A stretch of DNA of 36,454 nucleotides, taken from assembly GCA_947628105.1 (NCBI GenBank), contig CANQYN010000002.1, positions 1-36,454 of the forward strand, read 5' to 3'. Each line of letters begins with the position of its first letter. Position 1 is the first letter of the stretch. The position numbers were made by a program, and so were the translations under genes. Shown piece after piece: positions 1,176-32,214 of the stretch. Source of the stretch: an uncultured Bacilli bacterium (GTDB lineage Bacteria; Bacillota_I; Bacilli_A; RF39; UBA660). The notes beneath the pieces are model-generated. The model ran no database searches. It worked only from the letters and a program-made list of their open reading frames with translations, and was not told the origin of the DNA.

Positions 1176-1203
1176 TCAAAAAAGCTATCTTTCTGATAGC
1201 TTT
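1176..1203 (-). terminator. Rho-independent terminator ending the Mur/AsnB operon
   Basis: The minus strand reads AAAGCTATC-agaaa-GATAGCTTT followed by a T-run. The hairpin overlaps the stop codon of the last asnB-like gene. Confidence 0.7.
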
Positions 1204-3031
1204 ATGATTCCATTTTCTCAAAAAATTCATGATACCAAACAAGAAATGTATAAACCGTCCAAATTTTTTTATAGTTATCTTTTTTATTATGACGATGTTC
1301 TTCTAACAGTTTTAATAATTTTTCTGTTTTAAATAATTTTTGACAAATATCACTTTGAAAAGCATCTTTTATCTCTAAATAAATATCTTCTTCCCTCATC
1401 CATTCACGAAGAGGAACAGGAAATCCTAATTTTTTCTTATTATAAGATTCATTAGGAATATCTCTTTTTGCAGCTTGACGAAGTGCTACTTTCGTATTTT
1501 CTTTCGTCACTTTTGCACTATCAGGTAACGTTCTAGCCACCTTAAAAACTTCAATATCAGTAAAAGGTACCCTTCCTTCTATCGAATGGGCCATCGTCAT
1601 TTTATCTGCTTTTTGAAAAATATCATTAATTAGCCAAAATTGAATATCGATTGCCTGTCTTTTAATAATATTACTTTGTCCTTTTTGAAGTTCACAAACA
1701 GATCGAATAATTTCTTTATTGCTTTTTGATTTATCTTCTATCTTTAAAATTTTTCTAGCTTCTTTTTCGGGATAAACAGCATTGACTCCAATATAACCAT
1801 CCTCTATTTTTTGCCCTCGCCTTACTAAAAAGTTAATTCCTCTTCGTTGTGGTAAAAAACTACAAAGAGTGGCAATAAAATGTCGAATCGGGTAAGGAAT
1901 TTTATTATAGAAGCTAACATCTACCTCTGCTCGATAAATATTATATCCGCCAAAAAATTCATCGGCTCCTTCTCCAGATAATACTACTTTCACATCACGA
2001 CTTGCCAATTCAGCGACAAAATAAAGTGCGACAGCAGCGGGATCTGCTAGTGGTTCATCCAAATGGTACATAATTTTTGGAATGACATCAAAATATTCTT
2101 CTTTTGATATTTTTTTACTAGTATTATTAATATGAAGTTGTTTCGCTAAATCTTGTGCATAACGAATTTCATCATACTTAGGAATATCATATCCCACCGT
2201 ATATGTTTTATCAGGTTTTGTCAAAGCAACTAAATAAGAAGAATCAATTCCACTACTTAAAAAGGAACCAACTTCTACATCACTTATCATATGATGAGAA
2301 GCAGAATCTTTCATCACTTTACTAATCTCATCGACAATTTCATCAAATGATCTTTCTTTTTGATCAAAAGTCAATTCAAAATAAGATTGAATATCTAAAT
2401 GACCTTCTTTAAATCGAAAATAATGACCTGGTTTTAATTTATAAACATTTTTAAAAAAAGTTTCTTCTGTCGGTGTATAATTAAATCGCAAATAAGCTGG
2501 TAAAATATCAGTATTTAGTTCTTTTTTAAATTCTGGATTTTTTAAAAAACTTTTAATTTCTGATCCATACATAAAAAATTCCTTATCATGATAATAATAA
2601 AGCGGTTTAATTCCAAAATAATCTCTCGCTCCAAATAATTCTTTCTTTTTTGTATCCCATATAACAAAAGCAAACATCCCACGAAGTTTTTTTAAGATAT
2701 CTACTCCATATTCTTCATAGCCATGTAAAATTACTTCTGTATCGGTCGTCGTTGTAAATTGATGTCCTTTTTTCTGTAATTCTTTTTTTATTTCTCGATA
2801 ATTATAAATTTCTCCATTAAAGGTAATTAACTTATCTTTTTTTTCATTAAAAATTGGTTGTTTCCCTGTATTTAAATCAATAATCGAAAGTCTTCGGTGT
2901 CCTAAAGCAACGATATCATCGATATAATAACCTTCATCATCTGGTCCTCGATGAACAATTTGAAAAAGCATATCTTTTAATATTTTTTCTTTGTTCTTTT
3001 TCTTACTAATATATCCTGTAATTCCGCACAT
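1202..3031 (-). CDS. asnB: Asparagine synthase (glutamine-hydrolysing) family amidotransferase, paralog 1
   Basis: N-terminal MCGI with the Ntn nucleophile Cys2. HRRLSIIDL..GKQP and SGG-type (SSGIDSS) PP-loop motifs are present. SD is AAGGAGG. Confidence 0.9.
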   Translation of the reverse strand: MCGITGYISKKKNKEKILKDMLFQIVHRGPDDEGYYIDDIVALGHRRLSIIDLNTGKQPIFNEKKDKLITFNGEIYNYREIKKELQKKGHQFTTTTDTEVILHGYEEYGVDILKKLRGMFAFVIWDTKKKELFGARDYFGIKPLYYYHDKEFFMYGSEIKSFLKNPEFKKELNTDILPAYLRFNYTPTEETFFKNVYKLKPGHYFRFKEGHLDIQSYFELTFDQKERSFDEIVDEISKVMKDSASHHMISDVEVGSFLSSGIDSSYLVALTKPDKTYTVGYDIPKYDEIRYAQDLAKQLHINNTSKKISKEEYFDVIPKIMYHLDEPLADPAAVALYFVAELASRDVKVVLSGEGADEFFGGYNIYRAEVDVSFYNKIPYPIRHFIATLCSFLPQRRGINFLVRRGQKIEDGYIGVNAVYPEKEARKILKIEDKSKSNKEIIRSVCELQKGQSNIIKRQAIDIQFWLINDIFQKADKMTMAHSIEGRVPFTDIEVFKVARTLPDSAKVTKENTKVALRQAAKRDIPNESYNKKKLGFPVPLREWMREEDIYLEIKDAFQSDICQKLFKTEKLLKLLEEHRHNKKDNYKKIWTVYTFLVWYHEFFEKMES

Positions 3032-3047
3032 AATATCCTCCTTCTTT

Positions 3048-4898
3048 TTATAACTCGATAAAATATTTTTGATACCAAGTTAGAAAGACAAATATATTAT
3101 AAATTTTTCTTCCATTATTTTCTATTTTTCGATAATGTTTTTCTAATAAATCGTTGATTTTTTCTTTTTCAAAGAAATTAGAAACAAAATCTTTTTGAAA
3201 CATTTCCTTTACTTGTTGATAATATTTTTTTTCATATAACCATTTAGAAAAAGGTACTGGAAAACCTAACTTTCTTCTTTTTGCCCATTCTTCTGGTATT
3301 GTTTCATTGGCAATTTCTCGAAATATATATTTCGTCTGTTTCTTTTTTACTAAATATTTTGTAGGAATTTGGGAAGCAATATCCCATAATTTTTTATCTA
3401 ACAATGGAGTTCTTAATTCCAATGAATGAGCCATAGCCATTTTATCGGCTTTTAAAAGCATATCTTGAGGTAACCAAAAATGAAAATCAATATACAGTTT
3501 TTTAGTAATATCATCTTGATTTTTAACTTTATCATAATATGGTTTAATTACATCGCGAATCATCATATTATCTTTTAATCGTGGAGCCAATATATCATTT
3601 GCTTCTTTTTCATTCATAATATAAGCATGTCCAAAATATCGTTCATAAAATGGTTGACTATACTTTATAATGGTATTTTTTCCAGGAAAGTGAGGAAGAG
3701 GAGTTGCGATCGTCGCAAAACTTCTTTTCACAAATTGTGGTAATTTAATATAAAGTTTTACTACATTAGGCTCATAATATTCATTATAACCGGCAAACAT
3801 TTCATCAGATCCTTCTCCAGATAATACTACTTTTACTTGTTTTGATGCTAAAGAAGATAAAAAATAAAGAGGAACGGTTGACAAATTAGCATGAGGTTCA
3901 TCTGTATGATATTGAATCATAGGGAGAGCTTCAAAATATTCATCCGTAGTAATAAATTTTCTTTTATTTTTAATTCCTAACATTTCCGATAAATCTTTTG
4001 CATATTCTGTCTCATCAAAGGTTAATCCCCCTTTTTTGTCCATATGAAAACCGACAGAAAACGTCTTATCTGGTTTCGCGACACTAACGACATAAGAAGA
4101 ATCAACACCTCCTGATAAATAAGCACCCACTTCTACATCAGAAGTAATTTGATGATATTTTACAGAATCTTCTAGAACTTCTTTTAATTCTTGTTTATAA
4201 CTATCATAATCTCTATCTTTTTTATTATATAAGATATCAAAATATTGTTTTACTTTTAATTTCCCATCTTTATATTGAAAATAATGACCTGGTTTTAACT
4301 TATAAACATTTTTAAAAAAAGTTTCTTCAAAAATTGAATATTGAAAAATCAAAAACATTTTTAATGGTTTATCATTGATTTCTTTTTTAAAATGAGGGTG
4401 TGGTAAAAAACTCTTAATTTCAGAGCCAAACATAAATTCATCATCACAATAGTAATAATAAAATGGTTTCATTCCAAAATGATCTCGAGCCCCCACTAAT
4501 TCTTTCGTTTTTTTATCATAAATAACAAAGGCAAACATCCCTCTTAATTGCGAAAAAAGCTTTTCATGATATTCTTCATAACCATGTAAAATTACTTCTG
4601 TATCAGTTGTTGTGGTAAATTGATGACCTTTTTCTATTAAATCTTTTTTTAGTTCTTGATAGTTATAAATTTCTCCATTAAAAATAATCATTTTGCTTTT
4701 ATCTTCGTTATAGATTGGTTGTTTTCCTGTATTTAAATCAATAATGGAAAGACGTCGATGTCCAAGAGCAATATCATCATCGATATAATAACCTTCATCA
4801 TCGGGTCCCCGATGAATAATTTTATCTGCCATATTTTTAATGATTTTTTTCTTTTTCTCTTTTTTTATCGTATCGATAAATCCGACAATCCCACACAT
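3048..4898 (-). CDS. asnB: Asparagine synthase (glutamine-hydrolysing) family amidotransferase, paralog 2
   Basis: MCGIVGF start, HRRLSIIDL..GKQP motif and SGGVDSS PP-loop. SD is AGGAGG. Tandem to paralog 1. Confidence 0.9.
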   Translation of the reverse strand: MCGIVGFIDTIKKEKKKKIIKNMADKIIHRGPDDEGYYIDDDIALGHRRLSIIDLNTGKQPIYNEDKSKMIIFNGEIYNYQELKKDLIEKGHQFTTTTDTEVILHGYEEYHEKLFSQLRGMFAFVIYDKKTKELVGARDHFGMKPFYYYYCDDEFMFGSEIKSFLPHPHFKKEINDKPLKMFLIFQYSIFEETFFKNVYKLKPGHYFQYKDGKLKVKQYFDILYNKKDRDYDSYKQELKEVLEDSVKYHQITSDVEVGAYLSGGVDSSYVVSVAKPDKTFSVGFHMDKKGGLTFDETEYAKDLSEMLGIKNKRKFITTDEYFEALPMIQYHTDEPHANLSTVPLYFLSSLASKQVKVVLSGEGSDEMFAGYNEYYEPNVVKLYIKLPQFVKRSFATIATPLPHFPGKNTIIKYSQPFYERYFGHAYIMNEKEANDILAPRLKDNMMIRDVIKPYYDKVKNQDDITKKLYIDFHFWLPQDMLLKADKMAMAHSLELRTPLLDKKLWDIASQIPTKYLVKKKQTKYIFREIANETIPEEWAKRRKLGFPVPFSKWLYEKKYYQQVKEMFQKDFVSNFFEKEKINDLLEKHYRKIENNGRKIYNIFVFLTWYQKYFIEL

Positions 4899-4907
4899 AA
4901 TATCCTC

Positions 4908-6137
4908 CTAATCTGATGTCCAATAGCTATTTTTATATTCTCGATAATAAACAACGTGTCTTTTAAATAAGAAAATTTGCCGTTTCAAATTTCTATCTTT
5001 AGAATATCGTATTGGATTTACTACTTTTCCTGGTTTCCATAATCGTAACATTTCTTTTTTAAATTTTTTATTTTTAATATATTTTTTCGCTACTCCTTTA
5101 GGAACAAAAGAAAGCAATACTTTTTCGTCTAAAAAACGATAATTCATATCTTTGTGATAGATAACATCATCGGCAAGTACTTGAATTAAATTGGCCCCAA
5201 TCGGTGTAATATAATAACTACATCTTCCTTGTCTAGCATTAATTTCTAATACTTTAAATCGATGATCTCTCACATCATATTTCATATCAAATTCAGCAAA
5301 TCCTTGATATCCGATTTCTTCCATAAATTTTTTTATGTTTTCTGCCATCTCTCGTACTCCAGGAAATTCTGAATATCCATTGATTAAGACAGCTGCATTC
5401 CCAACCATATTTTTACTTCTTTCTTGAAGTCCAATTTGAGCAAACGAAAGAAGTTTTACTTTTTTATGTCTATCACAATAAACAACAGCATCAAAAAGAT
5501 GACTATCATCTCCAGGAATAAATTCTTGAATAACTAATTTACTCTTATAACCATTTTCTTTTATTCGTTTGAGAACTTCCTGTAATTCTCCTTCATTTTC
5601 TAATTTGTAAATTTTATTTTTCCCCTCAAAATCAAGATGATTATATTCTATGACATTACAAGGTTTTACAACGATAGGATATGTCAATTTGTCTTGAAAT
5701 AATCGATCTTGAGAACAGTCATAATAATAAGTTTTAGGAAAATCTAGACAAGAGTCCTGATAAGTTTGATAAAATTTATCTTTCATAATTAAATTTTGAA
5801 TAATTTCTTTATCAGGATAATTATATACATAATTTTTATGAAGCTTCTTTTTATTTTTAGCGATAAATTCCGCATAAGTTTCATTACTACTGACAAGTAA
5901 TATCTTTTTATTTGGATGCTTTTTTTGAAAATCATCTAGTGCTTTTAAAAAACCCTTTTCTGTCCATATTTCTTGATTATATTCCAACGTTAAAATATTG
6001 GTAAGTTCTGTATAAGGAGTAATACTATGACCTTTTCTTCCAATTAAATAAGCCTTTTTATGATATGCTTCATGGTAACATCTAGCCATATAATAGGCAT
6101 TGGCATCTGTTCCCATAATAAGTACTTCAAAGTCCAT
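4908..6137 (-). CDS. ATP-grasp carboxylate-amine ligase, D-aspartate-ligase-like (COG3919-type)
   Basis: The N-terminus VLIMGTDANAYYMARCYHEAYHK resembles the LLGSD.N.YGMARSF.EAYG start I recall for Enterococcus faecium Aslfm. The central YPIVVKP..QEFIPGDD..EINAR pattern is typical of ATP-grasp folds. SD is AGGAGGG. Confidence 0.65.
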   Translation of the reverse strand: MDFEVLIMGTDANAYYMARCYHEAYHKKAYLIGRKGHSITPYTELTNILTLEYNQEIWTEKGFLKALDDFQKKHPNKKILLVSSNETYAEFIAKNKKKLHKNYVYNYPDKEIIQNLIMKDKFYQTYQDSCLDFPKTYYYDCSQDRLFQDKLTYPIVVKPCNVIEYNHLDFEGKNKIYKLENEGELQEVLKRIKENGYKSKLVIQEFIPGDDSHLFDAVVYCDRHKKVKLLSFAQIGLQERSKNMVGNAAVLINGYSEFPGVREMAENIKKFMEEIGYQGFAEFDMKYDVRDHRFKVLEINARQGRCSYYITPIGANLIQVLADDVIYHKDMNYRFLDEKVLLSFVPKGVAKKYIKNKKFKKEMLRLWKPGKVVNPIRYSKDRNLKRQIFLFKRHVVYYREYKNSYWTSD

Positions 6138-6147
6138 CTTTTCCCTC

Positions 6148-7320
6148 CTAATATTTTATTTCTTTTTCATCATATATTCGTGGAACTCGATTTGTAATTG
6201 ATAACAACAACTGATAAGCATTGCTTTTCTTTTTTAAAGCTGCTTCTTTTACACTAATAGTATCTCCAAAAATTTCTACCTTATCATGTAAAGAAACAGA
6301 ATCATCAATTTGAATTATCGTCATATCCATACATATTTCCCCTATAATCGGATATTTTTTTCCATGAATTATCACTTCTTTAAAATCCAAACTCATCCCA
6401 TCCGCATAACCAATCGGTAAAATAGCAATCGTCATATCATCTTTGGCCTGATAAGAAGCGCGATAGCCAATTACTTCTCCTCGTTTTACTTGTTTGATAC
6501 TCATCACCTCTGTATAAAGTGAAAAAGCCGTTTGTAATGCAAGATGGTTTTCAAGATGTGTTTTTGAAATTTGAGTTTTTTTCAAATAACAATTTCGTTT
6601 GATTAATCGAAGTTTTCTTTTTATTCCACGACCGAAAGAAATACTTTGATTAAAACCATACATAATAATTCCTAAACGAATTCCATTAACAAAATCTGGT
6701 TTATCGTGATTTACTAAGGTTAATGATCTTCCCATATGAATTATCTTAACAGAAGTTAAATCGATATCTTTTAAAAGAAATTGAAATTTTTGGTATTGTC
6801 GATCCCAATATATATCATGAACTCCTTGCGTAGCAAAATGAGTATATATTCCTTCTACCTCGATATTTTTTTCTTGTTGTAATCCATAAAATACAGTTTC
6901 AAACTCTTCTTTTTCTTTGAAGCCTAATCGATTCATTCCCGTATCTAATTTTATATGTACCTTTAATTTTTTTGATAATTTTTCTCTTTTTAATTCTTGA
7001 TAGTAAGAAAAAGATTCCACCGTTATTGTTATATGTTGGCGAATACATTCTTCTAAGTAAGAAATAGGAATCACTTCTAAACATAAAATAGGAATAGTTT
7101 CATTCCATTTTCGAATACTTAATGCTTCTTCTAAAGAAGAGACAGCTAAATAATTGACTCCTCCTTTTATTAAGTCATTTACAATATAATCTCCATGTCC
7201 ATAAGCATTTCCTTTCACGACTCCAATATAGTATTGATAATTGGGATAATGCTTTTTAATTTCTTTGATATTATTTGTTAAAATTTCTGGTTTAATAGAA
7301 ACATAAGTATTTCGATACAT
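6148..7320 (-). CDS. alr: PLP-dependent alanine racemase family protein
   Basis: VVKGNAYGHG PLP-lysine motif, PIGYADG motif and a C-terminal RVPRIY-type end. There seems to be a basic ~25-aa insertion (GRGIKRKLRLIKRNCYLKKTQISK) relative to the Alr sequences I remember. Confidence 0.85.
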   Translation of the reverse strand: MYRNTYVSIKPEILTNNIKEIKKHYPNYQYYIGVVKGNAYGHGDYIVNDLIKGGVNYLAVSSLEEALSIRKWNETIPILCLEVIPISYLEECIRQHITITVESFSYYQELKREKLSKKLKVHIKLDTGMNRLGFKEKEEFETVFYGLQQEKNIEVEGIYTHFATQGVHDIYWDRQYQKFQFLLKDIDLTSVKIIHMGRSLTLVNHDKPDFVNGIRLGIIMYGFNQSISFGRGIKRKLRLIKRNCYLKKTQISKTHLENHLALQTAFSLYTEVMSIKQVKRGEVIGYRASYQAKDDMTIAILPIGYADGMSLDFKEVIIHGKKYPIIGEICMDMTIIQIDDSVSLHDKVEIFGDTISVKEAALKKKSNAYQLLLSITNRVPRIYDEKEIKY

Positions 7321-7331
7321 AAAAATCCTCC

Positions 7332-8693
7332 TTAATGATTTTGTATATATTCATTAACTATTTCTTGATCAGAAAAATGTATTTTTTCTGTTCCGATAAT
7401 TTGATAATCTTCATGCCCTTTTCCTAATATCATCAAAATATCATTGTGATTTAATAATGACATGCCTTTTTGAATCGCTTTTTTACGATCATAAATTACT
7501 TCATAATGTTGTCCACTAGCCCCCTCTAAAATATCATCCATAATCTTTTTAGGATCCTCCGTTCGGGGATTATCATTCGTAAATAAAACATAATCAGAAT
7601 AATCTAAAGCGATTTTTCCCATCAATGGTCGTTTTGTATGATCTCTATCTCCTCCACAGCCAAGAATAGTAATAATTTTTCCTTTTTTATATTCTTGAGC
7701 AGATGTTAATACATTTTCTACCGCATCTGGAGTATGAGCATAATCGACAAAAATACTATTATCATGGTAAGAAATCATTTCCATTCTCCCACTTGGAGCT
7801 TTCAAATCACTTGTTATTTTTAAAATTTCTTCTATCGTATATCCCATATAATAAACGAGTAATAAAGAAGTAAGATAATTATAAATATTATATCTTCCAA
7901 CCATTGGAATTGTCGTATGATATGATTTCATCTTCCACTTAAAATCAAACGATGTTCCTAAATGAGAAAATTCAATATTTGAAAAAACCAAATCACCTTG
8001 TTTATTACTAATTAAAATATTATGGTTTTCTAATAAATATCTTCGATAATAATGATCATCCCCATTAATAATCGCAATTTTTTCCCCTCTCGTTTTTTCA
8101 AATAACATTCTTTTGGCATTAGCGTAATTATCTAATGTTTTATGATAGTCCAAATGATCTTGTGTCAAATTAGTAAAAGCAACCTCATCAAAAGTAAGAC
8201 CATGAATTCGATTTTTATCTAACGCATGGCTACTTACTTCCATGACGACTGCTCGACATCCATTTTCTTTTGCCTCGATTAATAATTCATATAAAAGATC
8301 GATATCTGGAGTAGTATTATTCAATAGTCTTTTTTTATCTTGATAATAAAATCCAATCGTTCCGATATACGCAACAGGATATCCTAGTTTCTGTAACATT
8401 TGAAAAACTAAAAAACAAGTTGTCGTTTTTCCATTTGTTCCTGTTACCCCGATCATTTTCATATCTTTTATAGTCGGATAATAATTTTCATATAAATAAT
8501 TTTCTAAATATTTTCTTGTATCTTTTACAATTTCTGTCTCTACTGAATAAGACCCTTCTTCAGCAATAATTTTAGTAGCGCCATTGGAAATAGCATTTTC
8601 GATATAATCATGACCATCTCTTGCGACATTTCGAATAGCAATAAAAGTATCACCTGGTTTTACTTTTCTAGAATCAGTTTTTATTTCTATCAT
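7332..8693 (-). CDS. murE: UDP-MurNAc-L-Ala-D-Glu:diamino-acid ligase, MurE paralog 1, with a DNPR (meso-DAP type) motif
   Basis: TDSRKVKPGD start, GVTGTNGKTTT P-loop, DYAHTPDA, GGDRD..KRP, TNDNPRTEDP and GKGHEDYQ motifs. Its ATG overlaps the murF stop (ATGA). Confidence 0.9.
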   Translation of the reverse strand: MIEIKTDSRKVKPGDTFIAIRNVARDGHDYIENAISNGATKIIAEEGSYSVETEIVKDTRKYLENYLYENYYPTIKDMKMIGVTGTNGKTTTCFLVFQMLQKLGYPVAYIGTIGFYYQDKKRLLNNTTPDIDLLYELLIEAKENGCRAVVMEVSSHALDKNRIHGLTFDEVAFTNLTQDHLDYHKTLDNYANAKRMLFEKTRGEKIAIINGDDHYYRRYLLENHNILISNKQGDLVFSNIEFSHLGTSFDFKWKMKSYHTTIPMVGRYNIYNYLTSLLLVYYMGYTIEEILKITSDLKAPSGRMEMISYHDNSIFVDYAHTPDAVENVLTSAQEYKKGKIITILGCGGDRDHTKRPLMGKIALDYSDYVLFTNDNPRTEDPKKIMDDILEGASGQHYEVIYDRKKAIQKGMSLLNHNDILMILGKGHEDYQIIGTEKIHFSDQEIVNEYIQNH

Positions 8694-10294
8694 TTTTTTC
8701 CCTCTTTTTCAAGAAACATATCAGGAAGATCATTTTCAATCAAAGTATAAGTATCTTTGTCACTAATCTTCCGTAACAATTGAAATGCTTCATAAATATT
8801 ATCAAAAATATGAATTTTTTTATGATCATATTTCTGTTCGATTAACCCCTCATAAATAGGTTTTGTCTGCTTTTTCCCAACTAAGATTACTTCATCTGCG
8901 ACTTCTGTTATTTGTTTCCCAAAACGGAAATTAAGTTCATATTGTTTTTCTTTCAGTTCGATCATACCTGGTGTTACCACAATTTTTTTACCTGGCATCA
9001 AAGCAAGCGTTTCTAATGCCATCTTCGCTCCTACTGGATTAGAATTATAGCCATCATCAATTAAGTTTAATCCCCCTTCTCGTTTTAATTCTAAACGATG
9101 AGGAATCGTTTTAACTCCTTTTACTCCTTGTTTTATTTCATCGATAGTCATTCCTAGATGATAAGCTAATAAAATAGCGGCCAAAATATTATAGATATTT
9201 GCTTTCCCTAACAATTTTGTCTCCATGGAATATTTTTTCTTGTCTCCTTTAAATTGAATATCAAAAGTCATTCCATCTTTTGTTCCTTTGATATTAGAAG
9301 CTTTTAAATCCGCATTTTTATTATCGATGGCAATCCATTGAACTTGACAATGATTTTTAATGTTATACTGGACTTGTTTTTCATCGTCCATATTTAATAT
9401 AGCAAGCCCATCTTCTGGTAATGATTCCACTAATTCAAACTTTGTCTTTTGAATATTTTCTTCTGTTTTAAAGCTTTCTAAATGAGCAACTCCTATCTTT
9501 GTCAAAATCCCATATTTTGGTTTTACAAAATCACATAATTCTTTAATTTGACCTACTTCACAAGCTCCCATTTCTGCGACTAAATATTCGGTAAATTTAT
9601 CTAGATGATTATTGATAGTAAGCATTAATCCATAAGGAGTATTAAAATTTTTAGGAGTTGGTAACGTATCATACTTTACCTGTAAAATATCGGCTAAAAT
9701 ATTTTTACTACTCGTCTTTCCATAACTACCAGTAATCCCTATCACTTGTAAACGGGTATCTTCCTTAATCTTTTTTTTCGCTTTTTGAAAATAATAATAG
9801 TAAACGATTTTTTCGATTGGCTTATTAACAATATTAACAAAATAAATATAAAAAGCATTAAACGAAGCTAAAAGAACAAATAATAAAATTCCTGCTTTTT
9901 CATGAAATAAATATATCAAAGCAAAAACGAGATATCCTATTATCCAAGTCGCAAACATTCTTTTTACTCGTGAAGTAATTTTAAAACTGATTACAACTGG
10001 CTCTTTTTTATATTTCTCTTTGGTAATATAAAATAATAAAAGATAAAAAATTCCTAAAATAAGATAAATTCCTACCTTTAATTTTAATAAAAAGATAGTA
10101 ATAGGAATAAGTAAAATATCCGCTGTTATTAACAATTTTTGTGGATTATTTTTAAGCCATTTTAAATATCGATTGGAATTATTATAAAAATTTTGTTGTA
10201 ACATATGAAAACTTTTTTTCGACTTTATAATAACGTAACTAAAATAACAGATAAAGCAAAAAATAATTTCTAAACTTTTATATTCTATACTCAT
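8690..10294 (-). CDS. murF: MurF-type Mur ligase (UDP-MurNAc-tripeptide:D-Ala-D-Ala ligase family) with a polytopic membrane N-terminal region of about 165 aa
   Basis: GITGSYGKTSS P-loop, EMGA..GQI, IGVAHLESF and HRLE..IDDGYNSNP motifs are MurF-like. The first ~165 aa form about 5 hydrophobic helices in place of the usual soluble domain 1. The start is probably the ATG at 10294 (GGAGG with a 6-nt spacer); the ORF track start is 10300. Confidence 0.8.
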   Translation of the reverse strand: MSIEYKSLEIIFCFICYFSYVIIKSKKSFHMLQQNFYNNSNRYLKWLKNNPQKLLITADILLIPITIFLLKLKVGIYLILGIFYLLLFYITKEKYKKEPVVISFKITSRVKRMFATWIIGYLVFALIYLFHEKAGILLFVLLASFNAFYIYFVNIVNKPIEKIVYYYYFQKAKKKIKEDTRLQVIGITGSYGKTSSKNILADILQVKYDTLPTPKNFNTPYGLMLTINNHLDKFTEYLVAEMGACEVGQIKELCDFVKPKYGILTKIGVAHLESFKTEENIQKTKFELVESLPEDGLAILNMDDEKQVQYNIKNHCQVQWIAIDNKNADLKASNIKGTKDGMTFDIQFKGDKKKYSMETKLLGKANIYNILAAILLAYHLGMTIDEIKQGVKGVKTIPHRLELKREGGLNLIDDGYNSNPVGAKMALETLALMPGKKIVVTPGMIELKEKQYELNFRFGKQITEVADEVILVGKKQTKPIYEGLIEQKYDHKKIHIFDNIYEAFQLLRKISDKDTYTLIENDLPDMFLEKEGKK

Positions 10295-10317
10295 TTTCAT
10301 CCTCCAAATATATTTTT

Positions 10318-10326
10318 ATTATATCA
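10318..10326 (-). promoter_or_regulatory. Extended -10 element (TGATATAAT) upstream of murF
   Basis: The minus strand reads ccTGTGATATAAT about 20 nt upstream of the murF SD and downstream of the LCP terminator. The -35 is poor (T-run). Confidence 0.4.
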
Positions 10327-10387
10327 CAGGAATTTCTTGAAAAAAAGTTTTCCCTTCTCTTTTTTTGATTTCTTAAGTTTTATTTAC

Positions 10388-13552: not shown

Positions 13553-15091
13553 TCATTCGTTTTTATTTACATTTTTATGATTTTTCCACTTTAATGAATA
13601 AATGAGTAAAGGGATAGCACAAAACATTTGAGAACAAACAAACCTTATCTCTCCTCCTGTAATTAATAACATAACGATTAATGTATTACTAATGACAAGA
13701 AGAAATGGCAAATAAGCTTCTAAATTCAATTTCTGCTTAGCAATCATCAACATAAATGAAAAAACGATAATGAAAAGCCCTGTTCCAACCCCAAAAAATA
13801 AATATTTCAATAATGAAGATGAAACTATATTGGTATATCTATCATAATATTCATTAAGTTGTTTTAAAATACTTGAAGACGGAACTTCTGTAACATCAAA
13901 TTTAGAAAAGGAAACACTATCTTCTATTTTCCAAATAGGGCTTGTCACATTTAAGTAAGATCGAAGATACTTGAAAGGATATTTAAAACCATATTTTATA
14001 TAAAGTGTTATAATATCATTAAAATTTTCATTTGCCCAAGTCATATAAAGTTGTTTCCCTTTTGTTTTTAAAGAATTAAAATTAGTAGGACTATAATACT
14101 CTTCCCATGTTTTTTTATCTGCAAATTTATCTAATAACTCTCTTTCTTCTTTGGTTAATGTGGCGTTATTATGATAAATATAAGCGATTTGATTCATCGG
14201 AATTCCTAACATTTCTGTTTTCCCGCCATCAGGAGAAACACCAAGAGAAGAATAAATTGGACCATACAGTAAAAACCGAAATATTACTAATAAAAATCCC
14301 AACATAAGATAAAACTTTCGATATTTTTTATATAACAAAGATAGTACAATAAACATTATTATAATGCTGATAATTCCATTATGTCGGAGCAGCATCACTC
14401 CTAAGCTCATTAGAATAAAAACTATTTTATGACTTACTTTTTCTATCCATTGACCATGAGTAAAAACTAGTTCTATCAATATTAAAGTTCCTAAGAAAAT
14501 CATCCAAGAAAATGGTGTATCTTTACATAGAAACATGCACATTTTCATCACGGCAGGATTGAACAGAAATATGAAAAGAGTAATTAAAGTTCCTTTTTTA
14601 CTTAAGAAATATTTTCGTAAAATATAACAAAAATATAGTAAAATAACTCCTATTAAAATTAATTGAAAAATAGAACAAGACACATAACTATCATATATTA
14701 AAGATGGCAATTTAAAGAATAACAAAGTATGAATAACAGGATGCCAATTACTATAAGTATTTGTATGGGCTTGTCGCCATTGATTTGCGGTATCTACTGG
14801 TTTTAATACTGCCGGATATAAGGCGAAAAAGATAAAAATTAAAATAATACATATAAAAGCCCCATATAATAATAATTCTTTAGAATGAAAATCTTCTTTT
14901 TTAGCTTGTATCTCTCGCGAAATAAACGAAGGAAATAAAAATGATAGAATGATTACTGTTATACCAAATAATACTAATATACTAAACCAAGAAATACTTT
15001 CTCCTACCGTCCAACAAATCGATAAAGAAAAATAAAATGCTAAAATAATAATTAATATTTTTGATAAAAAATTATTTTTTACTTTTTTCAT
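13553..15091 (-). CDS. Polytopic membrane protein, tandem paralog 1 of 3 (possible GT-C-like extracytoplasmic glycosyltransferase)
   Basis: About 11-13 hydrophobic helices. A conserved first-loop D..QWRQ....Y(S/T)NWHP motif and a large soluble loop (GGK.EM.G.P.NQIAYIYH..) are present. Its ATG overlaps the stop of paralog 2 (ATGA). Confidence 0.85.
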   Translation of the reverse strand: MKKVKNNFLSKILIIILAFYFSLSICWTVGESISWFSILVLFGITVIILSFLFPSFISREIQAKKEDFHSKELLLYGAFICIILIFIFFALYPAVLKPVDTANQWRQAHTNTYSNWHPVIHTLLFFKLPSLIYDSYVSCSIFQLILIGVILLYFCYILRKYFLSKKGTLITLFIFLFNPAVMKMCMFLCKDTPFSWMIFLGTLILIELVFTHGQWIEKVSHKIVFILMSLGVMLLRHNGIISIIIMFIVLSLLYKKYRKFYLMLGFLLVIFRFLLYGPIYSSLGVSPDGGKTEMLGIPMNQIAYIYHNNATLTKEERELLDKFADKKTWEEYYSPTNFNSLKTKGKQLYMTWANENFNDIITLYIKYGFKYPFKYLRSYLNVTSPIWKIEDSVSFSKFDVTEVPSSSILKQLNEYYDRYTNIVSSSLLKYLFFGVGTGLFIIVFSFMLMIAKQKLNLEAYLPFLLVISNTLIVMLLITGGEIRFVCSQMFCAIPLLIYSLKWKNHKNVNKNE

Positions 15092-16635
15092 TTTATTTCC
15101 TCATTTCTAATTATTATTTTTTTTAGATATAATGCATAAATAAGCAATGGAATTACACATAACATTTGCGAATATACAAATCTTATTTCATATTTTGCCG
15201 TTGTTAACATCATAATAACAGCTGTATTACTTAATACGAGTATATATGGTAAATAGGCATGAAGATGTTTTTTTGACTTTATTATTACAATTGTAAAAGA
15301 TACTATAATACCAAATAAACTTGTTCCTATCCCCATAAAAATATATTTGAATGGTGATGCTTCTACAACAGAAGCATAATCGTCATAAACATTTTTTATA
15401 TAAGAAAATACTTTCGAATGATTTTCTGGTTGAGGCAATGAATCAAAATGAATGGAATCATTTCTAATAGTCCATATAGAACTGGTAACATTTAAATAAG
15501 CACGCAAATATTTATCTGGATATTTCATAGCGTATTTGATATAAAGTTTTATAAGATCATTAAAATTTTCATTTACCCAAGGAATAAATACAGGGCGAAT
15601 GTCATCATCAAATTTAAGAGTATTGAAATTTCCAGGTCTATATTTTTCTTCCCATTTTTTCTTTGGTGCTAATTTATCAAATAAATCCAGTTCTTCAGGT
15701 GTCATTTTTACATTTTGATGGTAAATATAGGCGATTTGATTTAAAGGCACTCCTATCATTTCTGATTTACCTCCATCGGAAGCAATTCCTAATTGATGAT
15801 AAATAGGACCATATAGTAAAAATCGAAATAAGAATAATAAGATTCCCACTATAAGATAAAATTTCCTATCTTTTTTATAAATTAAAATCAAGAAAACTAA
15901 TAAACAAAAGATGCTGATAATTCCATTATGCCGAAATAACATAATTCCTAAGCTCATTAATACAAAAAGTATTTTATGACTTATTTTCTCAATCCATTTC
16001 CCTTTTGTCAGTACTATTTCTATCGAAATTAATGTTCCTAAAAATAAAAGCCATGAAAATGCAATATCCTTTATTAAAAACATCGACATTTTACTAAAAG
16101 ATGGATTCAATACGATGAGCAACAAAACGAGAATGGTTCCTTTTTTACTTAAAAAATATTTTCTTAAAAAGATACAAAAATATAACAAGATAGTGCCAAT
16201 AAAAAGCATTTGAAAAATTGTACAAGATATATAATGATTATAAATTAATGTAGGTAATTTCAGAAATAAAATTGTTTGAACTACAGGGTGCCAATTACTA
16301 TAATTTCCAGTTTGTACTTGTCTCCATTGAGAAGTAATATCAGCATTGATAACTGCGGGATACCACACCAAGAAAGATAATACAAAAACGATAAGAAGAA
16401 TAAATCCATATAAAATGAGTTCCTTACGCATATCTTCCTCTGGTGACTTTTTTAAAGTTATACTTGTTATGGTTGAAAAATATCTTTTCAAAAATAAATA
16501 AGAAATAATAAATATGATTCCTACGCTAAACCAAGAAATACTCTCATTTAAATCCCATCCAATAGCAATAGACAAATAAAATGCTAATAGTATCACTAAT
16601 ATATTATTTAATAAATTTTGTTTCGCTATTTTCAT
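15088..16635 (-). CDS. Polytopic membrane protein, tandem paralog 2 of 3
   Basis: Same architecture and motifs as paralog 1 (SNWHPV, LRKYFLSKKGT, FRFLLYGPIY, EIRFVYSQ). ATGA overlap with paralog 3. Confidence 0.85.
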   Translation of the reverse strand: MKIAKQNLLNNILVILLAFYLSIAIGWDLNESISWFSVGIIFIISYLFLKRYFSTITSITLKKSPEEDMRKELILYGFILLIVFVLSFLVWYPAVINADITSQWRQVQTGNYSNWHPVVQTILFLKLPTLIYNHYISCTIFQMLFIGTILLYFCIFLRKYFLSKKGTILVLLLIVLNPSFSKMSMFLIKDIAFSWLLFLGTLISIEIVLTKGKWIEKISHKILFVLMSLGIMLFRHNGIISIFCLLVFLILIYKKDRKFYLIVGILLFLFRFLLYGPIYHQLGIASDGGKSEMIGVPLNQIAYIYHQNVKMTPEELDLFDKLAPKKKWEEKYRPGNFNTLKFDDDIRPVFIPWVNENFNDLIKLYIKYAMKYPDKYLRAYLNVTSSIWTIRNDSIHFDSLPQPENHSKVFSYIKNVYDDYASVVEASPFKYIFMGIGTSLFGIIVSFTIVIIKSKKHLHAYLPYILVLSNTAVIMMLTTAKYEIRFVYSQMLCVIPLLIYALYLKKIIIRNEEIK

Positions 16636-18155
16636 ATTTCATGACCAGCTTTTCTACCTTTTAAAGAAAGAGCATAAATCAATAATGGAACAGCACATAG
16701 TATTTGAGAATAAACAAATCGTATCTCTTCACCTGTTATTAATAACATAATAATTAACGTGTTACTAATAACTAGTATAAATGGTAAATAATATTCTAAT
16801 TGAAATCTTTTCCTATAAATCACTATTACAATAGATAAAACAATAAGAAATAACCCCATTCCCACTCCGAAAAATAAATATTTTAATGGAGACGTAGAAA
16901 TAATATCATAATATCTTTCATAACACCCTCTCGCATGAATTAAAATGAAAGAATGATTTTTTTGTAATTCATCCGATGCAAAATTATCTAAATGATCTTG
17001 AATTTTCCAAATAGGACTTGTCACGTTCATATAAGAACGTATATATTTATCAGGATATTTAATAGCATATTTTATATAAAATTTTATAATTTCTTTAAAA
17101 TTTGTATCCACCCATGTTCCATAAATACCTTTACTGTTTGATTTCAAAAAATTAAAACTCGCTGGGCGATAATATTGTTCCCACTTTTCTTTGGGAGCAA
17201 GCTTGTCCAATAGTTTATGTTCTTCTTTTGTCATTTTAACATTTTGATGATAAATATAGGCGATTTGATTCATCGGAACTCCCATCATTTCTGATTTTCC
17301 TCCATCAGGGGTAATTCCTAATTGACTATAAACGGGTCCATATAATAAAAATCGAAATAAAACAAATAGAATGCCACAAGTCATATAAAATTTACGTTTA
17401 TCTTTATATAAAACAATTAAAGTTAAAAACATCAATACGACACTGAAAAGTCCATTATGACGAAACATCATAATTCCTAAGCTTACTAAAATAAAAATTA
17501 TTTTATGACTTGTTTTTTCTATCCATTTTCCTTTTGTAAAAACAATTTCTATTAAAAATAAAGTTCCTACAAACAATATCCATGAAAATGGGACATCTTT
17601 ATAACAATACATCGACATTTTAATAAAAGTAGGATTTAACATAATTGTCAATAAAGCAAGGATTGTTCCTTTTTTACTCAGAAAATATTTTCTTAAAAAG
17701 ATACAAAAATATAATAAAATACATCCAATAAAAATTAATTGAAAAACAGATAATGATACATAACTGTCATATATCATAGTCGGTAAAGTGACAAAAATTA
17801 AAGTCTCAATGAAAGGATGCCAATTGGTATAAGTTCCACTATGTACTTGACGCAATTGACTTTGGGTATCAGAACTTACAACGGCAGGAAATAAGGCAAG
17901 AAATGCGAAAAGAAAAATTGTTATAATGATACCACCATATAAAATCAATTCCTTTTTTTCATATTTTTCTTTATCTTTTTTCAAAACAAAATTACTGAGA
18001 TTAGGAAATATCGTCTTCAATATCATAAAAGAAATAAAAAATATCATTACCACACTAAACCAAGAGATGCTTTCATTTAGATTCCAACAAATGGAAATAG
18101 AAAAATAAATAGATAATAACATTTCCAAAATAAATAACAAACTATTTTTTTTCAT
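16632..18155 (-). CDS. Polytopic membrane protein, tandem paralog 3 of 3
   Basis: Same motifs as the other two. The start is placed at the ATG at 18155 (MKKNSLLF...), which aligns with the N-termini of the paralogs. The ORF-track extension to 18233 would overlap the 3' end of ugd. Confidence 0.85.
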   Translation of the reverse strand: MKKNSLLFILEMLLSIYFSISICWNLNESISWFSVVMIFFISFMILKTIFPNLSNFVLKKDKEKYEKKELILYGGIIITIFLFAFLALFPAVVSSDTQSQLRQVHSGTYTNWHPFIETLIFVTLPTMIYDSYVSLSVFQLIFIGCILLYFCIFLRKYFLSKKGTILALLTIMLNPTFIKMSMYCYKDVPFSWILFVGTLFLIEIVFTKGKWIEKTSHKIIFILVSLGIMMFRHNGLFSVVLMFLTLIVLYKDKRKFYMTCGILFVLFRFLLYGPVYSQLGITPDGGKSEMMGVPMNQIAYIYHQNVKMTKEEHKLLDKLAPKEKWEQYYRPASFNFLKSNSKGIYGTWVDTNFKEIIKFYIKYAIKYPDKYIRSYMNVTSPIWKIQDHLDNFASDELQKNHSFILIHARGCYERYYDIISTSPLKYLFFGVGMGLFLIVLSIVIVIYRKRFQLEYYLPFILVISNTLIIMLLITGEEIRFVYSQILCAVPLLIYALSLKGRKAGHEI

Positions 18156-18171
18156 CTTTTCACATCCATTC

Positions 18172-19338
18172 TCAATCTCTTGTATAAATATCTCTCGTAT
18201 AAATTTTGGAAATGCTATCGTTAATATTTTCATCTATTCTATTAGCTAAAATAATATCAGATTTTTCTTTAAAATCTTGTAGATCATCTATTACTTTACA
18301 ATTAGCAAATGTCCCTTCTTTTACAATTGGTTCATAGATAATAATATCGATATCTTTTCGTTTCAATAACGCTATAATATCTTGAATAGCGCTGGCTCTA
18401 AAATTATCAGAATTATTTTTCATTGTTAAACGATATATTCCTACTATTTTGGGAGATTTTTTTTCTATCATATCAACAATATGTCTTTTTCGTGTATCAT
18501 TTGATTTTATAATAGCTTCTATAATATTATTCGGGACATCTTTATAATTAGCAAGCAATTGTTTTGTATCCTTAGGTAGGCAATATCCACCATACCCAAA
18601 AGAAGGATTATTATAAAAATCACCAATTCTAGGATCAAGGCATACCCCTTCAATAATATCTTTTGTATTTAGACCTTTCAGTTCCGCGTAAGTATCTAAC
18701 TCATTAAAATAAGATACACGTAATGCTAAATAAGTGTTTGCGAACAATTTAACTGCTTCTGCTTCAGTTGATTCCATTAAAAGAATTGGAATATCTTTTT
18801 TAATAGCTGCTTCTTTTAATAAAGAAGCAAATTTTAAAGCTCTATCACTTTTCTCACCTACGATAATTCGAGATGGATATAAATTATCATATAAAGCTTT
18901 TCCTTCTCTTAAAAATTCTGGTGAAAACATAATATTAGTCATTTGATATTTTTGTTTCATTTGCTTAATAAAACCAACTGGTACTGTCGACTTGACAACG
19001 ATTGTCCCCATAGGATTAATACTTTTTACTTTCATGATAATATCTTCTACACTAGAAGTATCAAAATAATTTAATTCTTCATCATAATTAGTAGGTGTAC
19101 TAATGATAATAAATTCAGCTTTTTCAAATGCTTCTTTAGCATCTAACGTAGCTTTTAAATCAAGCTTTTTTGTTCTGAAATATTCTTCTATTTCCCTATC
19201 TCTTATAGGCGACTTTTTTTGATTTATCATATCTACTTTTTCAGATAATACATCGAAAGCTATTACTGTATTCCTTTGAGCAAGTAAAACAGCAATAGAA
19301 AGTCCTACATATCCTGTTCCTGCAACTGCTATTTTCAT
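18172..19338 (-). CDS. ugd: UDP-glucose 6-dehydrogenase
   Basis: [14 protein letters not shown] Rossmann start, a catalytic-region [10 protein letters not shown] motif and a length of 388 aa. Confidence 0.9.
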
Positions 19339-30072: not shown

Positions 30073-31008
30073 ATGTTAATATTTAAGAAAAAATATCTTT
30101 TTTTCGATTTGATTAATTTATGGCTAGATACGAAAAAAAACATTAAAATTCAATCGTATCAAAAGTATGAAAATTTAGCCAATTTATTTATTAAAAATAG
30201 TATAGGTAATATTGATATTAATTTACTAACAAAAGAAGATATCCTCTGTTTTTTTAAAAATCTACAAGATAAAAAAGTATCTATATCAACTCAGAAAATA
30301 TTACTTTATATTATAAAAGCTACTCTACAAATGGCATATCAAAAGAAAAAATGCAATTATATTGATCTAAGCGATATTAAAATTAAATCACCAGTCAGAA
30401 ATACATATATTTTATCAAAAGAAGACCAATTGAAGCTAGAACATGTTTTAAAAGAAGATATTAACATTCGAAAAACATGCTTGTTACTTTGTTTATATAC
30501 TGGTCTTCGTATTGGTGAAGTATGTGGTTTAAAATGGGAGGATATTAATTTCAATACAAAATCACTAGAAGTAAAAAGAACGATTGAGAGAATAAAAAAT
30601 AATGAAAAAAATTCTCATTTAAAAACTATTTTAATTGAAAGTACACCTAAAAGTGATACATCTAATCGTATTATTCCTATTCCTAATTTTTTAATTCAAA
30701 TGTTACAAAAATTAAAAACAGAGGATAAATATTTTTTATTATCCAATAAAGAAACATTATATGATCCAAGACTTTTTAATTATTTTTATAAAAATATTTT
30801 AAAAAAATCTAATATTACCTATACTAATTTTCATACTTTACGCCATACTTTTGCAACTCGTTCAATCGAATCAAAAATGGATATAAAAACGTTAAGTGAA
30901 ATTTTAGGACATTCTAATGTCGATATAACGTTGCGTTTATATGTACATCCTTCGTATGAATTAAAGAAAAAATCGATTGAAAATTTAGTAAACTTTATGA
31001 CTAATTAG
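30073..31008 (+). CDS. Tyrosine site-specific recombinase (phage-integrase / Xer-like family)
   Basis: The catalytic signature is present: TGLRIGEV (Arg I), HTLRHTFAT (His-x-x-Arg), LGHSNV and RLYVH (Tyr). SD is GGAGGTGA. Confidence 0.9.
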   Translation: MLIFKKKYLFFDLINLWLDTKKNIKIQSYQKYENLANLFIKNSIGNIDINLLTKEDILCFFKNLQDKKVSISTQKILLYIIKATLQMAYQKKKCNYIDLSDIKIKSPVRNTYILSKEDQLKLEHVLKEDINIRKTCLLLCLYTGLRIGEVCGLKWEDINFNTKSLEVKRTIERIKNNEKNSHLKTILIESTPKSDTSNRIIPIPNFLIQMLQKLKTEDKYFLLSNKETLYDPRLFNYFYKNILKKSNITYTNFHTLRHTFATRSIESKMDIKTLSEILGHSNVDITLRLYVHPSYELKKKSIENLVNFMTN

Positions 31009-31189: not shown

Positions 31190-31226
31190 TAAAAAATCAC
31201 TAGATAAATGTCTAGTGATTTTTTTT
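31190..31226. terminator. Bidirectional rho-independent terminator downstream of mraY
   Basis: aaaaaATCACTAGA-taaatg-TCTAGTGATttttttt. The 9-bp stem has an A-run on one side and a T-run on the other. Confidence 0.8.
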
Positions 31227-32214
31227 AAATCCATACTGCAAATAAAACACCTGCCATAGAAAGAATTATTCCAACAACCCAAAACATTTTTACAATATCT
31301 CTTTCTTTCCATCCTAATTTTTCAAAATGATGATGGAGTGGTGCCATTAAAAATACTCTTCTTCCCGTTATCATTAAAGATAATCTTTGAATAATAACAG
31401 ATAATGTTTCAATAATAAATACTCCGGCAATAATAATAAAAGTAATTTCATGATTCGTAAGAATAGCAATCGTTGCCATGGTACCTCCTAAACATAAAGA
31501 GCCAGAATCTCCCATCATAATTTTAGCTGGATAGGTATTATAAAATAAATATCCTAATAAAGCACCCACTAAAATGAAGCAGAAAACAGCAATCTCAGTA
31601 TAACCTACTACCCAGGTAGAATTCCATGCAATTAATCCAAGGGCTAAAAAAGCGATAAGAGAAAGACCTCCTGCTAAACCATCTAATCCATCTGTTAGAT
31701 TTACAGCATTACTACTTGCCACTAAAATAAATAGTAAAAATACTCCATAGAACCAATACATTTCTAAACGAAAATTAAGTGTATGAATATAAAGCTCTGT
31801 TTGATGTCCACTTTTTAAAAAGATATAGAAAAATCCTAATGCAATTAATAACTGTCCAACTAGCTTTTTCATTTCACTTAACCCATTATTATTATGTCTT
31901 TTTATAATTAAAAAATCATCAATAAATCCTAATATAGCATATCCAATAAAGACAAATAAAATAGTAAGCAAGTTATTAGACCATTCTAATCGATTCATAA
32001 GAAGTAAGATTAAAATAGTCAGAACAGTAGGAATAATAAAGATAAAACTTCCCATCGTTGGTGTTCCTTCTTTTTTCTTATGTTGTAGTAAAGACCAACT
32101 TAACACTTGTTTTGCTCCTACTTTTTTCATCAAAGGAATAATTATTAAACCACATAAGATGGCGAGAATAAACCCGATCATCATGGCCAACATTGCTTTT
32201 GCTAGAACTAACAC
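31225..32214 (-). CDS. mraY: Phospho-N-acetylmuramoyl-pentapeptide transferase
   Basis: Ten-TM profile with GFIDDFLIIK, NAVNLTDGLDGLA, MGDSGSL and APLHHHFE motifs. GTG start with an AGGAG SD. Confidence 0.92.
   Translation of the reverse strand: MLVLAKAMLAMMIGFILAILCGLIIIPLMKKVGAKQVLSWSLLQHKKKEGTPTMGSFIFIIPTVLTILILLLMNRLEWSNNLLTILFVFIGYAILGFIDDFLIIKRHNNNGLSEMKKLVGQLLIALGFFYIFLKSGHQTELYIHTLNFRLEMYWFYGVFLLFILVASSNAVNLTDGLDGLAGGLSLIAFLALGLIAWNSTWVVGYTEIAVFCFILVGALLGYLFYNTYPAKIMMGDSGSLCLGGTMATIAILTNHEITFIIIAGVFIIETLSVIIQRLSLMITGRRVFLMAPLHHHFEKLGWKERDIVKMFWVVGIILSMAGVLFAVWI

Follow-up and report, generated by a model that had tools for sequence, protein, structure and literature searches.

A putative peptidoglycan-branching operon with a conserved racemase, ATP-grasp ligase and amidotransferase module in an uncultured Bacilli bacterium

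Background

The closest known counterpart of the genes considered here is the AslA/Aslfm, RacD and AsnH system of Lactococcus lactis and Enterococcus faecium, which combines a D-amino acid racemase, an ATP-grasp ligase and amidation by an AsnB-family enzyme. The genes racD and aslA of L. lactis lie in one operon, and Aslfm and AslA activate D-Asp as β-aspartyl phosphate (PMC4155827). We report a six-gene locus of the same logic in an uncultured Bacilli bacterium, on contig CANQYN010000002.1; "the window" below is the whole stretch analysed, 36,454 nucleotides (nt) in length. The locus contains an Alr-family racemase, an ATP-grasp ligase and two AsnB-family amidotransferases behind two Mur ligase genes. 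It differs from the AslA/Aslfm system in that the racemase is a derivative of Alr, dependent on pyridoxal phosphate (PLP) and of fold type III, whereas the known partner is the PLP-independent enzyme of PF01177; that the ligase belongs to a separate clade (at least 40% identity within it, and about 30-35% to annotated D-aspartate ligases) with the motif FxEFD and not FANFD; and that the three genes are contiguous.

The amidotransferases resemble AsnB1 of Lactobacillus plantarum, LtsA of Corynebacterium and AsnB of Bacillus subtilis, which amidate meso-diaminopimelic acid (meso-DAP) and are likewise glutamine-dependent AsnB-family enzymes of about 610-620 residues. The asnB1 gene of L. plantarum adjoins murE (PMC4155827), and both copies in the window similarly share an operon with a murE of the DNPR type. 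The difference is that here there are two paralogues, and that the widely conserved copy tracks the ligase and not murE. MurT/GatD, which amidates D-Glu on lipid II, also places a glutamine-derived amide on a carboxyl of the stem peptide; it consists of a Mur-ligase-like protein and a class-I glutaminase, which is a different family, and none was seen in the window.

A specialised Alr-family racemase paired with an ATP-grasp ligase that alters peptidoglycan precursors is also known from VanT with VanC or VanG. The locus differs in that its ligase is not of the Ddl family, that vanXY and regulator genes are absent, and that the racemase keeps Tyr354, which VanT replaces, and scores 209 against the VanT cut-off of 460. 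Resistance of the VanT/VanC type was ruled out, considering that the ligase does not resemble Ddl and that the score of the racemase falls far under the VanT cut-offs. Finally, PylC has the ATP-grasp fold in common with our ligase. It joins D-ornithine through the α-carboxyl to the ε-amine of lysine, and thus offers a precedent for such enzymes attaching a D-amino acid to a side-chain amine in this way; PylC has no detectable sequence relationship to the ligase, and its substrate is free lysine and not a wall precursor.

Results

All six genes lie on the minus strand and are transcribed from position 10300 to 1202 in the order murF, murE, racemase, ligase, asnB1, asnB2. They comprise a murF-like Mur ligase gene (8690-10300; domains Mur_ligase_M and Mur_ligase_C); a murE of the meso-DAP type, referred to as paralogue B or murE-B (7332-8693; DNPR at residues 374-377, NF001126); the gene of a T-type, that is, ligase-linked, Alr-family racemase of 390 residues (6148-7320; Ala_racemase_N, Ala_racemase_C, TIGR00492); the ligase gene (4908-6137, 409 residues); asnB1, the ligase-coupled amidotransferase copy (3048-4898, 616 residues); and asnB2 (1202-3031, 609 residues), both AsnB proteins having the domains GATase_7 and Asn_synthase. 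The domain and family scans bear out the original prediction, made from the sequence of the window, that a racemase, an ATP-grasp ligase and two AsnB-family enzymes follow murF and murE.

The intergenic gaps are, in order, -4, 11, 10, 9 and 16 nt, the start of murE overlapping murF by 4 nt; the tight spacing stated originally stands, although the range given for it, 10-17 nt, does not fit these values exactly. A GGAGG or AGGAGG ribosome-binding site is found 5' of murF, the racemase gene, the ligase gene, asnB1 and asnB2, so the strong site claimed for each of the last four genes is present in all of them; the site of murE is weaker, GAGGG-like only. Terminator-like hairpins at 10415-10393, which ends the upstream LCP gene and where the operon region begins, and at 1203-1181, directly 3' of asnB2, enclose precisely the six genes (both on the minus strand). 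A promoter-like element with an extended -10, TTTCAA-N8-TGTGATATAAT, is proposed from sequence only at 10318-10342 on the minus strand, before murF. Judging by the tight or overlapping gaps, the strong ribosome-binding sites and the flanking hairpins, we assign the six genes to one operon.

The survey of gene neighbourhoods recommended in the original prediction was carried out on 157 loci, whose ligases show 40-79% identity to that of the window. They were drawn from two overlapping sets of 196 and 318 candidate matches, and some stretches were retrieved by both scans. A search of species genomes with the single ligase protein yielded no close relatives; the relatives were found with an alignment query. 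Almost all the loci come from metagenome-assembled genomes, labelled as Bacilli, Tenericutes, Clostridia, Lachnospiraceae, Acutalibacteraceae and Oscillospiraceae; the one isolate is Lachnospiraceae bacterium YSD2013.

In 143 of the 157 loci, 129 of them unique, the gene immediately upstream of the ligase gene encodes an Alr-type racemase; the gap between the two has a median of 11 nt, and each of the 143 racemases is derived from Alr. The pairwise identities of racemases and of ligases correlate (r = 0.86), which shows joint inheritance of the two genes. An asnB1 orthologue comes next after the ligase gene in 102 loci, with a median gap of 4 nt. The conserved unit is thus the racemase-ligase pair with or without AsnB and not the fusion to the mur genes: the fusion onto murF-murE pointed out originally is present in the window, but it is lineage-specific, being restricted, together with the second AsnB, to the lineage of the window and a few neighbours.

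Elsewhere the module is located beside the division and cell wall (dcw) cluster with murE and mraY, or ahead of a MOP-family flippase gene followed by a canonical alr, or ahead of murE variants with EDPG, EDAR or DDLH instead of DNPR. The flippase was considered as a possible MurJ; this was rejected, since the protein matches Polysacc_synt and MatE and can be assigned to the MOP family only. Since the murE neighbours carry differing motifs, the module appears to combine with different ligases of residue 3. Considering that its neighbours are wall genes in such different contexts, guilt by association points strongly to a peptidoglycan function, and we regard a role of the module in peptidoglycan branching as well supported. 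The idea of a peptidoglycan kit has therefore held, both in the wall-gene contexts and in the tight coupling of AsnB to the ligase, which is similar to that of AsnH and AsnB1 (PMC4155827).

One clade of Lachnospiraceae has the gene order ftsE, ftsX, M23 peptidase, ctpA, racemase, ligase, asnB, diaminobutyrate transaminase, murE. In strain YSD2013 (locus L091, 9091-11844) and about 25 related loci, the gene between asnB and an EDAR-type murE encodes a diaminobutyrate-2-oxoglutarate transaminase (623 bits against the cut-off of 438). This suggests peptidoglycan containing 2,4-diaminobutyrate in the clade.

The ligase itself has no Pfam match and only weak CPSase-like and Ddl-like matches in NCBIfam, and a sequence search of the PDB with it returned no relative. 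Its AlphaFold2 model (predicted local distance difference test 78.8, predicted template modelling score 0.83) has the ATP-grasp fold, and Foldseek related the model to an L-amino acid ligase (3VOT, the top match), PurK, biotin carboxylase, Ddl and PylC (4ffm) with E-values from 1e-11 to 1e-14. A profile search of 1.84 billion cluster representatives produced 3017 relatives at E ≤ 0.001 and 322 at E ≤ 1e-30. The full-length relatives P0127, P0132, P0160 and P0175 are 30-35% identical to the window ligase over about 400 residues (BLASTP E from 1e-58 to 1e-92), and in IMG these proteins or a member of their cluster are named D-aspartate ligase; UniProt likewise gives this label to the members from Occultella and Paraoerskovia. 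Two relatives are fused to an Asp/Glu racemase of PF01177 (P0138, P0143), and others, among them P0181 and P0224, to FemAB. In cultured bacteria, the gene of the relative in Pseudoclavibacter soli is flanked by those of an Asp/Glu racemase and a FemAB-family protein, and that in Lacticigenium adjoins two Mur ligase genes and a MurJ-family gene. Relatives also occur in Macrococcus, Sporosarcina, Planococcus, Psychrobacillus, Caryophanon, Filobacillus and Lacticigenium, and several of these genera have walls bridged by D-Glu or D-Asp. On these annotated relatives, domain fusions and gene contexts, we conclude that the ligase belongs to the family of wall cross-bridge ligases typified by Aslfm and AslA (D-aspartate ligase, EC 6.3.1.12), in agreement, at the family level, with the resemblance to Aslfm noticed originally.

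Longer architectures were also encountered in the family. P0181, P0193, P0194, P0257 and P0224 are fused to a DegT-type aminotransferase, to FemAB or to both and reach 1235 residues, and P0179 is fused to a response-regulator receiver domain.

Within the family the window ligase is atypical. About 125 of 150 family representatives, including those fused to an Asp/Glu racemase and those of Planococcaceae, have the strand motif F-A/S-N-F-D, which the window ligase and its clade lack. Their motif is F-x-E-F-D, with Glu282 (FAEFD versus FANFD; codon at 5292-5294, minus strand) two residues before the first predicted metal-binding Asp; among the 150 representatives, this Glu is found only in the window ligase and its six relatives of at least 40% identity. 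The Glu282 clade coincides exactly with the clade paired to the derived racemase described below. Partners of PF01177 are confined to distant members of the family: a PF01177 probe gave no match at any locus of the window ligase clade in the second set of loci, and the window ligase is neither fused to a PLP-independent Asp racemase nor encoded in one operon with it. Because the switch of partner coincides with a change in the catalytic strand, these observations argue for a changed substrate in the ligase clade. Position 254 (Arg in Planococcaceae, Gly here) was considered as a determinant of specificity and dropped, as it is variable across the family.

The racemase, as had been recognised originally, is a PLP-dependent enzyme of fold type III and not a PLP-independent Asp racemase: it has both Alr domains and scores 278 bits on TIGR00492, above the alr equivalog cut-off of 168. 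Its residues, unless the insertion is meant, are numbered after Alr of Geobacillus stearothermophilus, the alignment reference, whose sequence was verified against PDB 1l6f. The window racemase keeps K39, Y43, K129, R136, H166, R219, Y265', Y284', M312' and Y354. In 150 derived-type racemases, the PLP Lys, Tyr43, Lys129, Arg136, His166, Arg219 and Tyr265' are kept in all and Tyr284', Met312' and Tyr354 almost always; by position, catalytic and inner-gate residues are conserved in 137-150 of the 150 ligase-linked proteins. With Tyr354, Tyr265', Tyr284' and Met312' retained, the pocket looks alanine-sized.

Outside the pocket the subfamily is clearly derived. The basic insertion reported for the window racemase is real: it occupies residues 230-257 (6550-6633, minus strand), reads GRGIKRKLRLIKRNCYLKKTQISKTHLE, contains ten Lys or Arg and one Asp or Glu, and follows barrel strand 8, its placement relative to the active site being derived from topology only. 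The segment after strand 8 has 29-38 residues in all 144 ligase-adjacent racemases and 8-10 in 17 canonical paralogues; the insertion itself, common to all 150 derived-type racemases, has 27-28 residues, with a mean net charge of +6. The window racemase also has the changes G86E, D171G, N203R and R309'E and has lost E172; subfamily-wide they are G86 to E/Q, D171G (149 of 150), loss of E172, N203 to R/K, R309' to E/D (129 of 150) and I352 to N/T/S. Ligase-linked racemases accordingly have neither the compact linker after strand 8 nor the intact canonical entryway set of Asp171, Arg309', Arg290' and Ile352, residues which we take to be the middle layer of the Alr entryway. In 17 loci a canonical alr lies a few kilobases (kb) downstream in the same locus, with D171 and R309' kept and the insertion absent. 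Because this canonical alr shows none of the derived changes, the ligase-linked racemase is, as judged from these alignments, a specialised paralogue and not simply the housekeeping enzyme.

The two amidotransferases are 51% identical and score 534 (asnB1) and 514 bits (asnB2) on TIGR01536. Both start with MCG, the Cys being the nucleophile, and the PP-loop is SGGVDS in asnB1 and SSGIDS in asnB2. Through the shared operon both genes are linked to murE and to the bridge ligase. The claim of two distinct amidotransferases stands for the window, but it does not extend to the module at large: the orthologue group of asnB2 includes only six distinct related Bacilli-type loci besides the window, four of the six with a DNPR-type murE (the set has eight sequences, counting the window and two loci fetched twice).

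The Mur ligases at the head of the operon also have peculiarities. The murF-like protein scores 238 bits on TIGR01143, under the cut-off of 288.6, and matches model positions 64-396 only. Where domain 1 would be expected, it has an N-terminal hydrophobic segment of about 170 residues with roughly five membrane-spanning stretches (a Kyte-Doolittle scan gives hydrophobic stretches at residues 7-27, 53-94 and 114-158), and it does not have the three-domain arrangement with an N-terminal substrate-binding domain. Among the best 120 homologue clusters listed, which show 54-72% identity at 93-100% query coverage, the long form is shared, and the sources name the proteins MurF. Since the long form is the rule in the lineage, MurF activity has probably been retained. 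Anchoring of MurF in the membrane would be unusual.

The second gene, murE-B, scores 518 bits on NF001126 (cut-off 373). In the DNPR motif, the Arg in the fourth position binds the D-centre carboxylate of meso-DAP (PMC3829189). A second murE in the window, paralogue A or murE-A (32229-33605, minus strand), is 42% identical to murE-B and adjoins mraY (31225-32214, minus strand; 304 bits on TIGR00445 against the cut-off of 192). It has DDPG instead of DNPR, so we presume that it is not of the DAP type. In a relative whose ligase is 74% identical (locus L163), murE-A, mraY, one unknown gene, murF, murE-B, racemase, ligase, asnB1 and asnB2 follow on one stretch; both murE paralogues (1048-2427 and 6288-7649) are kept there, with 77% identity to the window. 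The original prediction had seen a conflict between a DAP-type MurE and a ligase of the kind that builds bridges on L-Lys. The DNPR motif is confirmed, but the mismatch is not compelling because a second MurE, not of the DAP type, lies in the same ancestral cluster.

Relative to L163, the window has about 21 kb (10405-31224) between mraY and murF. This region looks like an inserted surface-polysaccharide island. It contains a tyrosine-type integrase gene (30073-31008, plus strand) and a polysaccharide locus with a priming transferase, DUF4422, two GT1 genes, Wzy, a CapA-like protein, a TupA-like ATP-grasp protein, UDP-glucose dehydrogenase, an FAD oxidoreductase, LCP and three DUF6020 genes, the last being tandem membrane-protein paralogues of 512, 515 and 533 residues at 13553-18233. 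A capsule-related role of the operon was ruled out, as the adjacent polysaccharide genes are an insertion missing from the close relative L163.

At the other end of the window, the product of the gene at 13-1116 begins with a methylation motif of the prepilin type, ends in a run of HTHxFTGT repeats and also has a phage tail collar domain and a Gp10_C-like region. A perfect match to the promoter TTGACA-18-TATAAT precedes it at 1175-1146, and L163 has a Gp10_C protein in the equivalent position.

Discussion

We consider it moderately probable that this is a late cytoplasmic operon for peptidoglycan precursors, built around a conserved module that adds an amidated D-amino-acid branch or substituent to the stem. 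The racemase derived from alanine racemase would produce a D-amino acid. The ligase would form an acyl phosphate and join the D-amino acid to the UDP-N-acetylmuramyl-peptide stem as a side branch or substituent, most likely at the side-chain amine of the diamino acid in position 3, as in Aslfm. AsnB1 would then amidate the carboxyl left free after ligation, and the lineage-specific AsnB2 would most likely amidate the ε-carboxyl of meso-DAP, like AsnB1 of L. plantarum and LtsA; the stem would be provided by MurF and murE-B. We infer all the substrates and all the chemical steps from what can be read directly at the loci: gene content, operon structure, the ligase family, a racemase-ligase pair that is conserved and whose sequences co-vary, and the derived features.

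As for the branch residue, we would put a neutral, alanine-sized D-amino acid (D-Ala, perhaps D-Ser) first, D-Asp or D-Glu second and a D-diamino acid third. The candidacy of D-Ala comes from the retained alanine-sized pocket of the racemase. A D-diamino acid is possible in view of the acidic shifts in the racemase and of the diaminobutyrate transaminase in Lachnospiraceae, which would be explained equally by a murE that adds L-diaminobutyrate at position 3.

Several points weigh against this scheme. D-Ala joined through its α-carboxyl creates no new carboxyl, therefore AsnB1, present in 102 loci, would need another target, such as the α-carboxyl of D-Glu or the ε-carboxyl of meso-DAP. We know of no peptidoglycan type with a D-Ala side branch, and the canonical alr beside the module in 17 loci speaks against such a branch. 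AsnB is missing from the vicinity of the racemase-ligase pair in about one third of the loci. The family assignment of the ligase is derived from annotated relatives and fusions and not from the sequences of Aslfm and AslA themselves. Finally, the scheme does not account for two MurE of different motif in one ancestral cluster.

The alternative that survives best, which we hold possible but rather unlikely, is that the Alr-fold enzyme is an Asp (or Glu) racemase. The ligase would then add D-Asp through its β-carboxyl to the side-chain amine of residue 3 (meso-DAP or Lys), AsnB1 would convert it to D-iso-asparagine like AsnH, and AsnB2 would amidate meso-DAP, giving a doubly amidated wall of the A4 type. 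In favour of this reading are that names, and fusion or adjacency to PF01177 racemases, link the ligase family as a whole to D-Asp or D-Glu, that relatives occur in Planococcus, Sporosarcina, Lacticigenium and Macrococcus, among which several genera have walls bridged by such residues, and that a dicarboxylic branch would give the ligase-coupled AsnB1 the job of AsnH; the basic insertion and Arg or Lys203 of the racemase could even bind a side-chain carboxylate. However, the racemase retains Tyr354, Tyr265' and Tyr284', which restrict the pocket to alanine, and the residues it gained at 86 and 309' are acidic. No member of the Alr family is known to us to accept acidic amino acids as substrates. 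The near-universal Asn282 has become Glu in the ligase clade, which is unexpected if D-Asp is still the substrate. D-Asp as the branch, the literal reading of the original prediction, was thus not borne out, given a racemase derived from Alr with an alanine-sized pocket and a ligase clade with the Asn-to-Glu change.

Somewhat less likely still, in our opinion, the three genes serve a wall chemistry for which no enzymes are known: a D-amino-acid amide (for example, D-Ala-NH2) on a carboxyl of the stem, or a new side branch of the D-Ala type. The amide would be placed on the α-carboxyl of D-Glu or the ε-carboxyl of meso-DAP, and such a substituent would fit all three module genes. Chemical studies on a few actinobacteria, now decades old, described D-Glu bearing D-alanine amide or glycine amide, and no genes are known to have been assigned to these substituents; we looked for support for D-alanine amide in the literature available to us and found none.

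It is improbable that the genes form a loose housekeeping cluster, with the alanine racemase and the asparagine synthetases of the cell lying beside mur genes and at most the ATP-grasp enzyme modifying peptidoglycan. The family models do allow it: the score of the racemase exceeds the equivalog cut-off for alr, the asparagine synthase model accepts both AsnB proteins, and PDB entries named alanine racemase 1 and 2 are among the matches. Many Firmicutes, moreover, have two alanine racemases. Such a cluster would hardly keep the racemase adjoining the ligase in 143 loci of very different context with correlated identities, nor AsnB so close behind the ligase in 102 loci; and the racemase subfamily has fixed derived features that are absent from the canonical alr of the same locus.

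Least of all do we believe that the module makes a small soluble peptide amide containing a D-amino acid (such as an osmolyte or antibiotic) instead of a part of the wall: a precedent exists in N-acetylglutaminylglutamine amide, the product of an ATP-grasp enzyme acting together with an AsnO-type amidotransferase, both AsnB proteins reach 360-368 bits on the N-acetylglutaminylglutamine amidotransferase model (under its cut-off of 570) and the top structural match of the ligase, 3VOT, is an L-amino acid ligase, but the neighbours are consistently wall genes (murE, murF, mraY, flippase, dcw), the ligase family has FemAB fusions, and exporter, GNAT and peptidase partners do not recur among the identified frequent neighbour families.

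Conclusions

The module appears to be a variant of the known logic of racemase, bridge ligase and amidotransferase, widespread in uncultured gut Firmicutes, for which, as far as we could find, no characterisation has been published. For most gut Firmicutes no wall chemistry has been established; a published table leaves most genera of Lachnospiraceae and Oscillospiraceae blank (PMC11382707). Peptidoglycan fragments from the gut are signals active on the host.

We believe that the module can serve as a compact genomic marker (129 unique loci) that predicts a branched or substituted, amidated stem in lineages almost all of which are uncultured. It also presents a case in which an alanine racemase and a ligase of the D-Asp type may have changed together. 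Establishing the identity of the added residue would extend the known non-ribosomal routes to wall branches and would affect predictions of susceptibility to lysozyme, endolysins, NOD receptors and antibiotics. If the module does make a D-amino-acid amide substituent or a D-Ala-type branch, this chemistry would be widespread in uncultured gut Firmicutes, and in the lineage of the window it would be combined with two MurE of different specificity.

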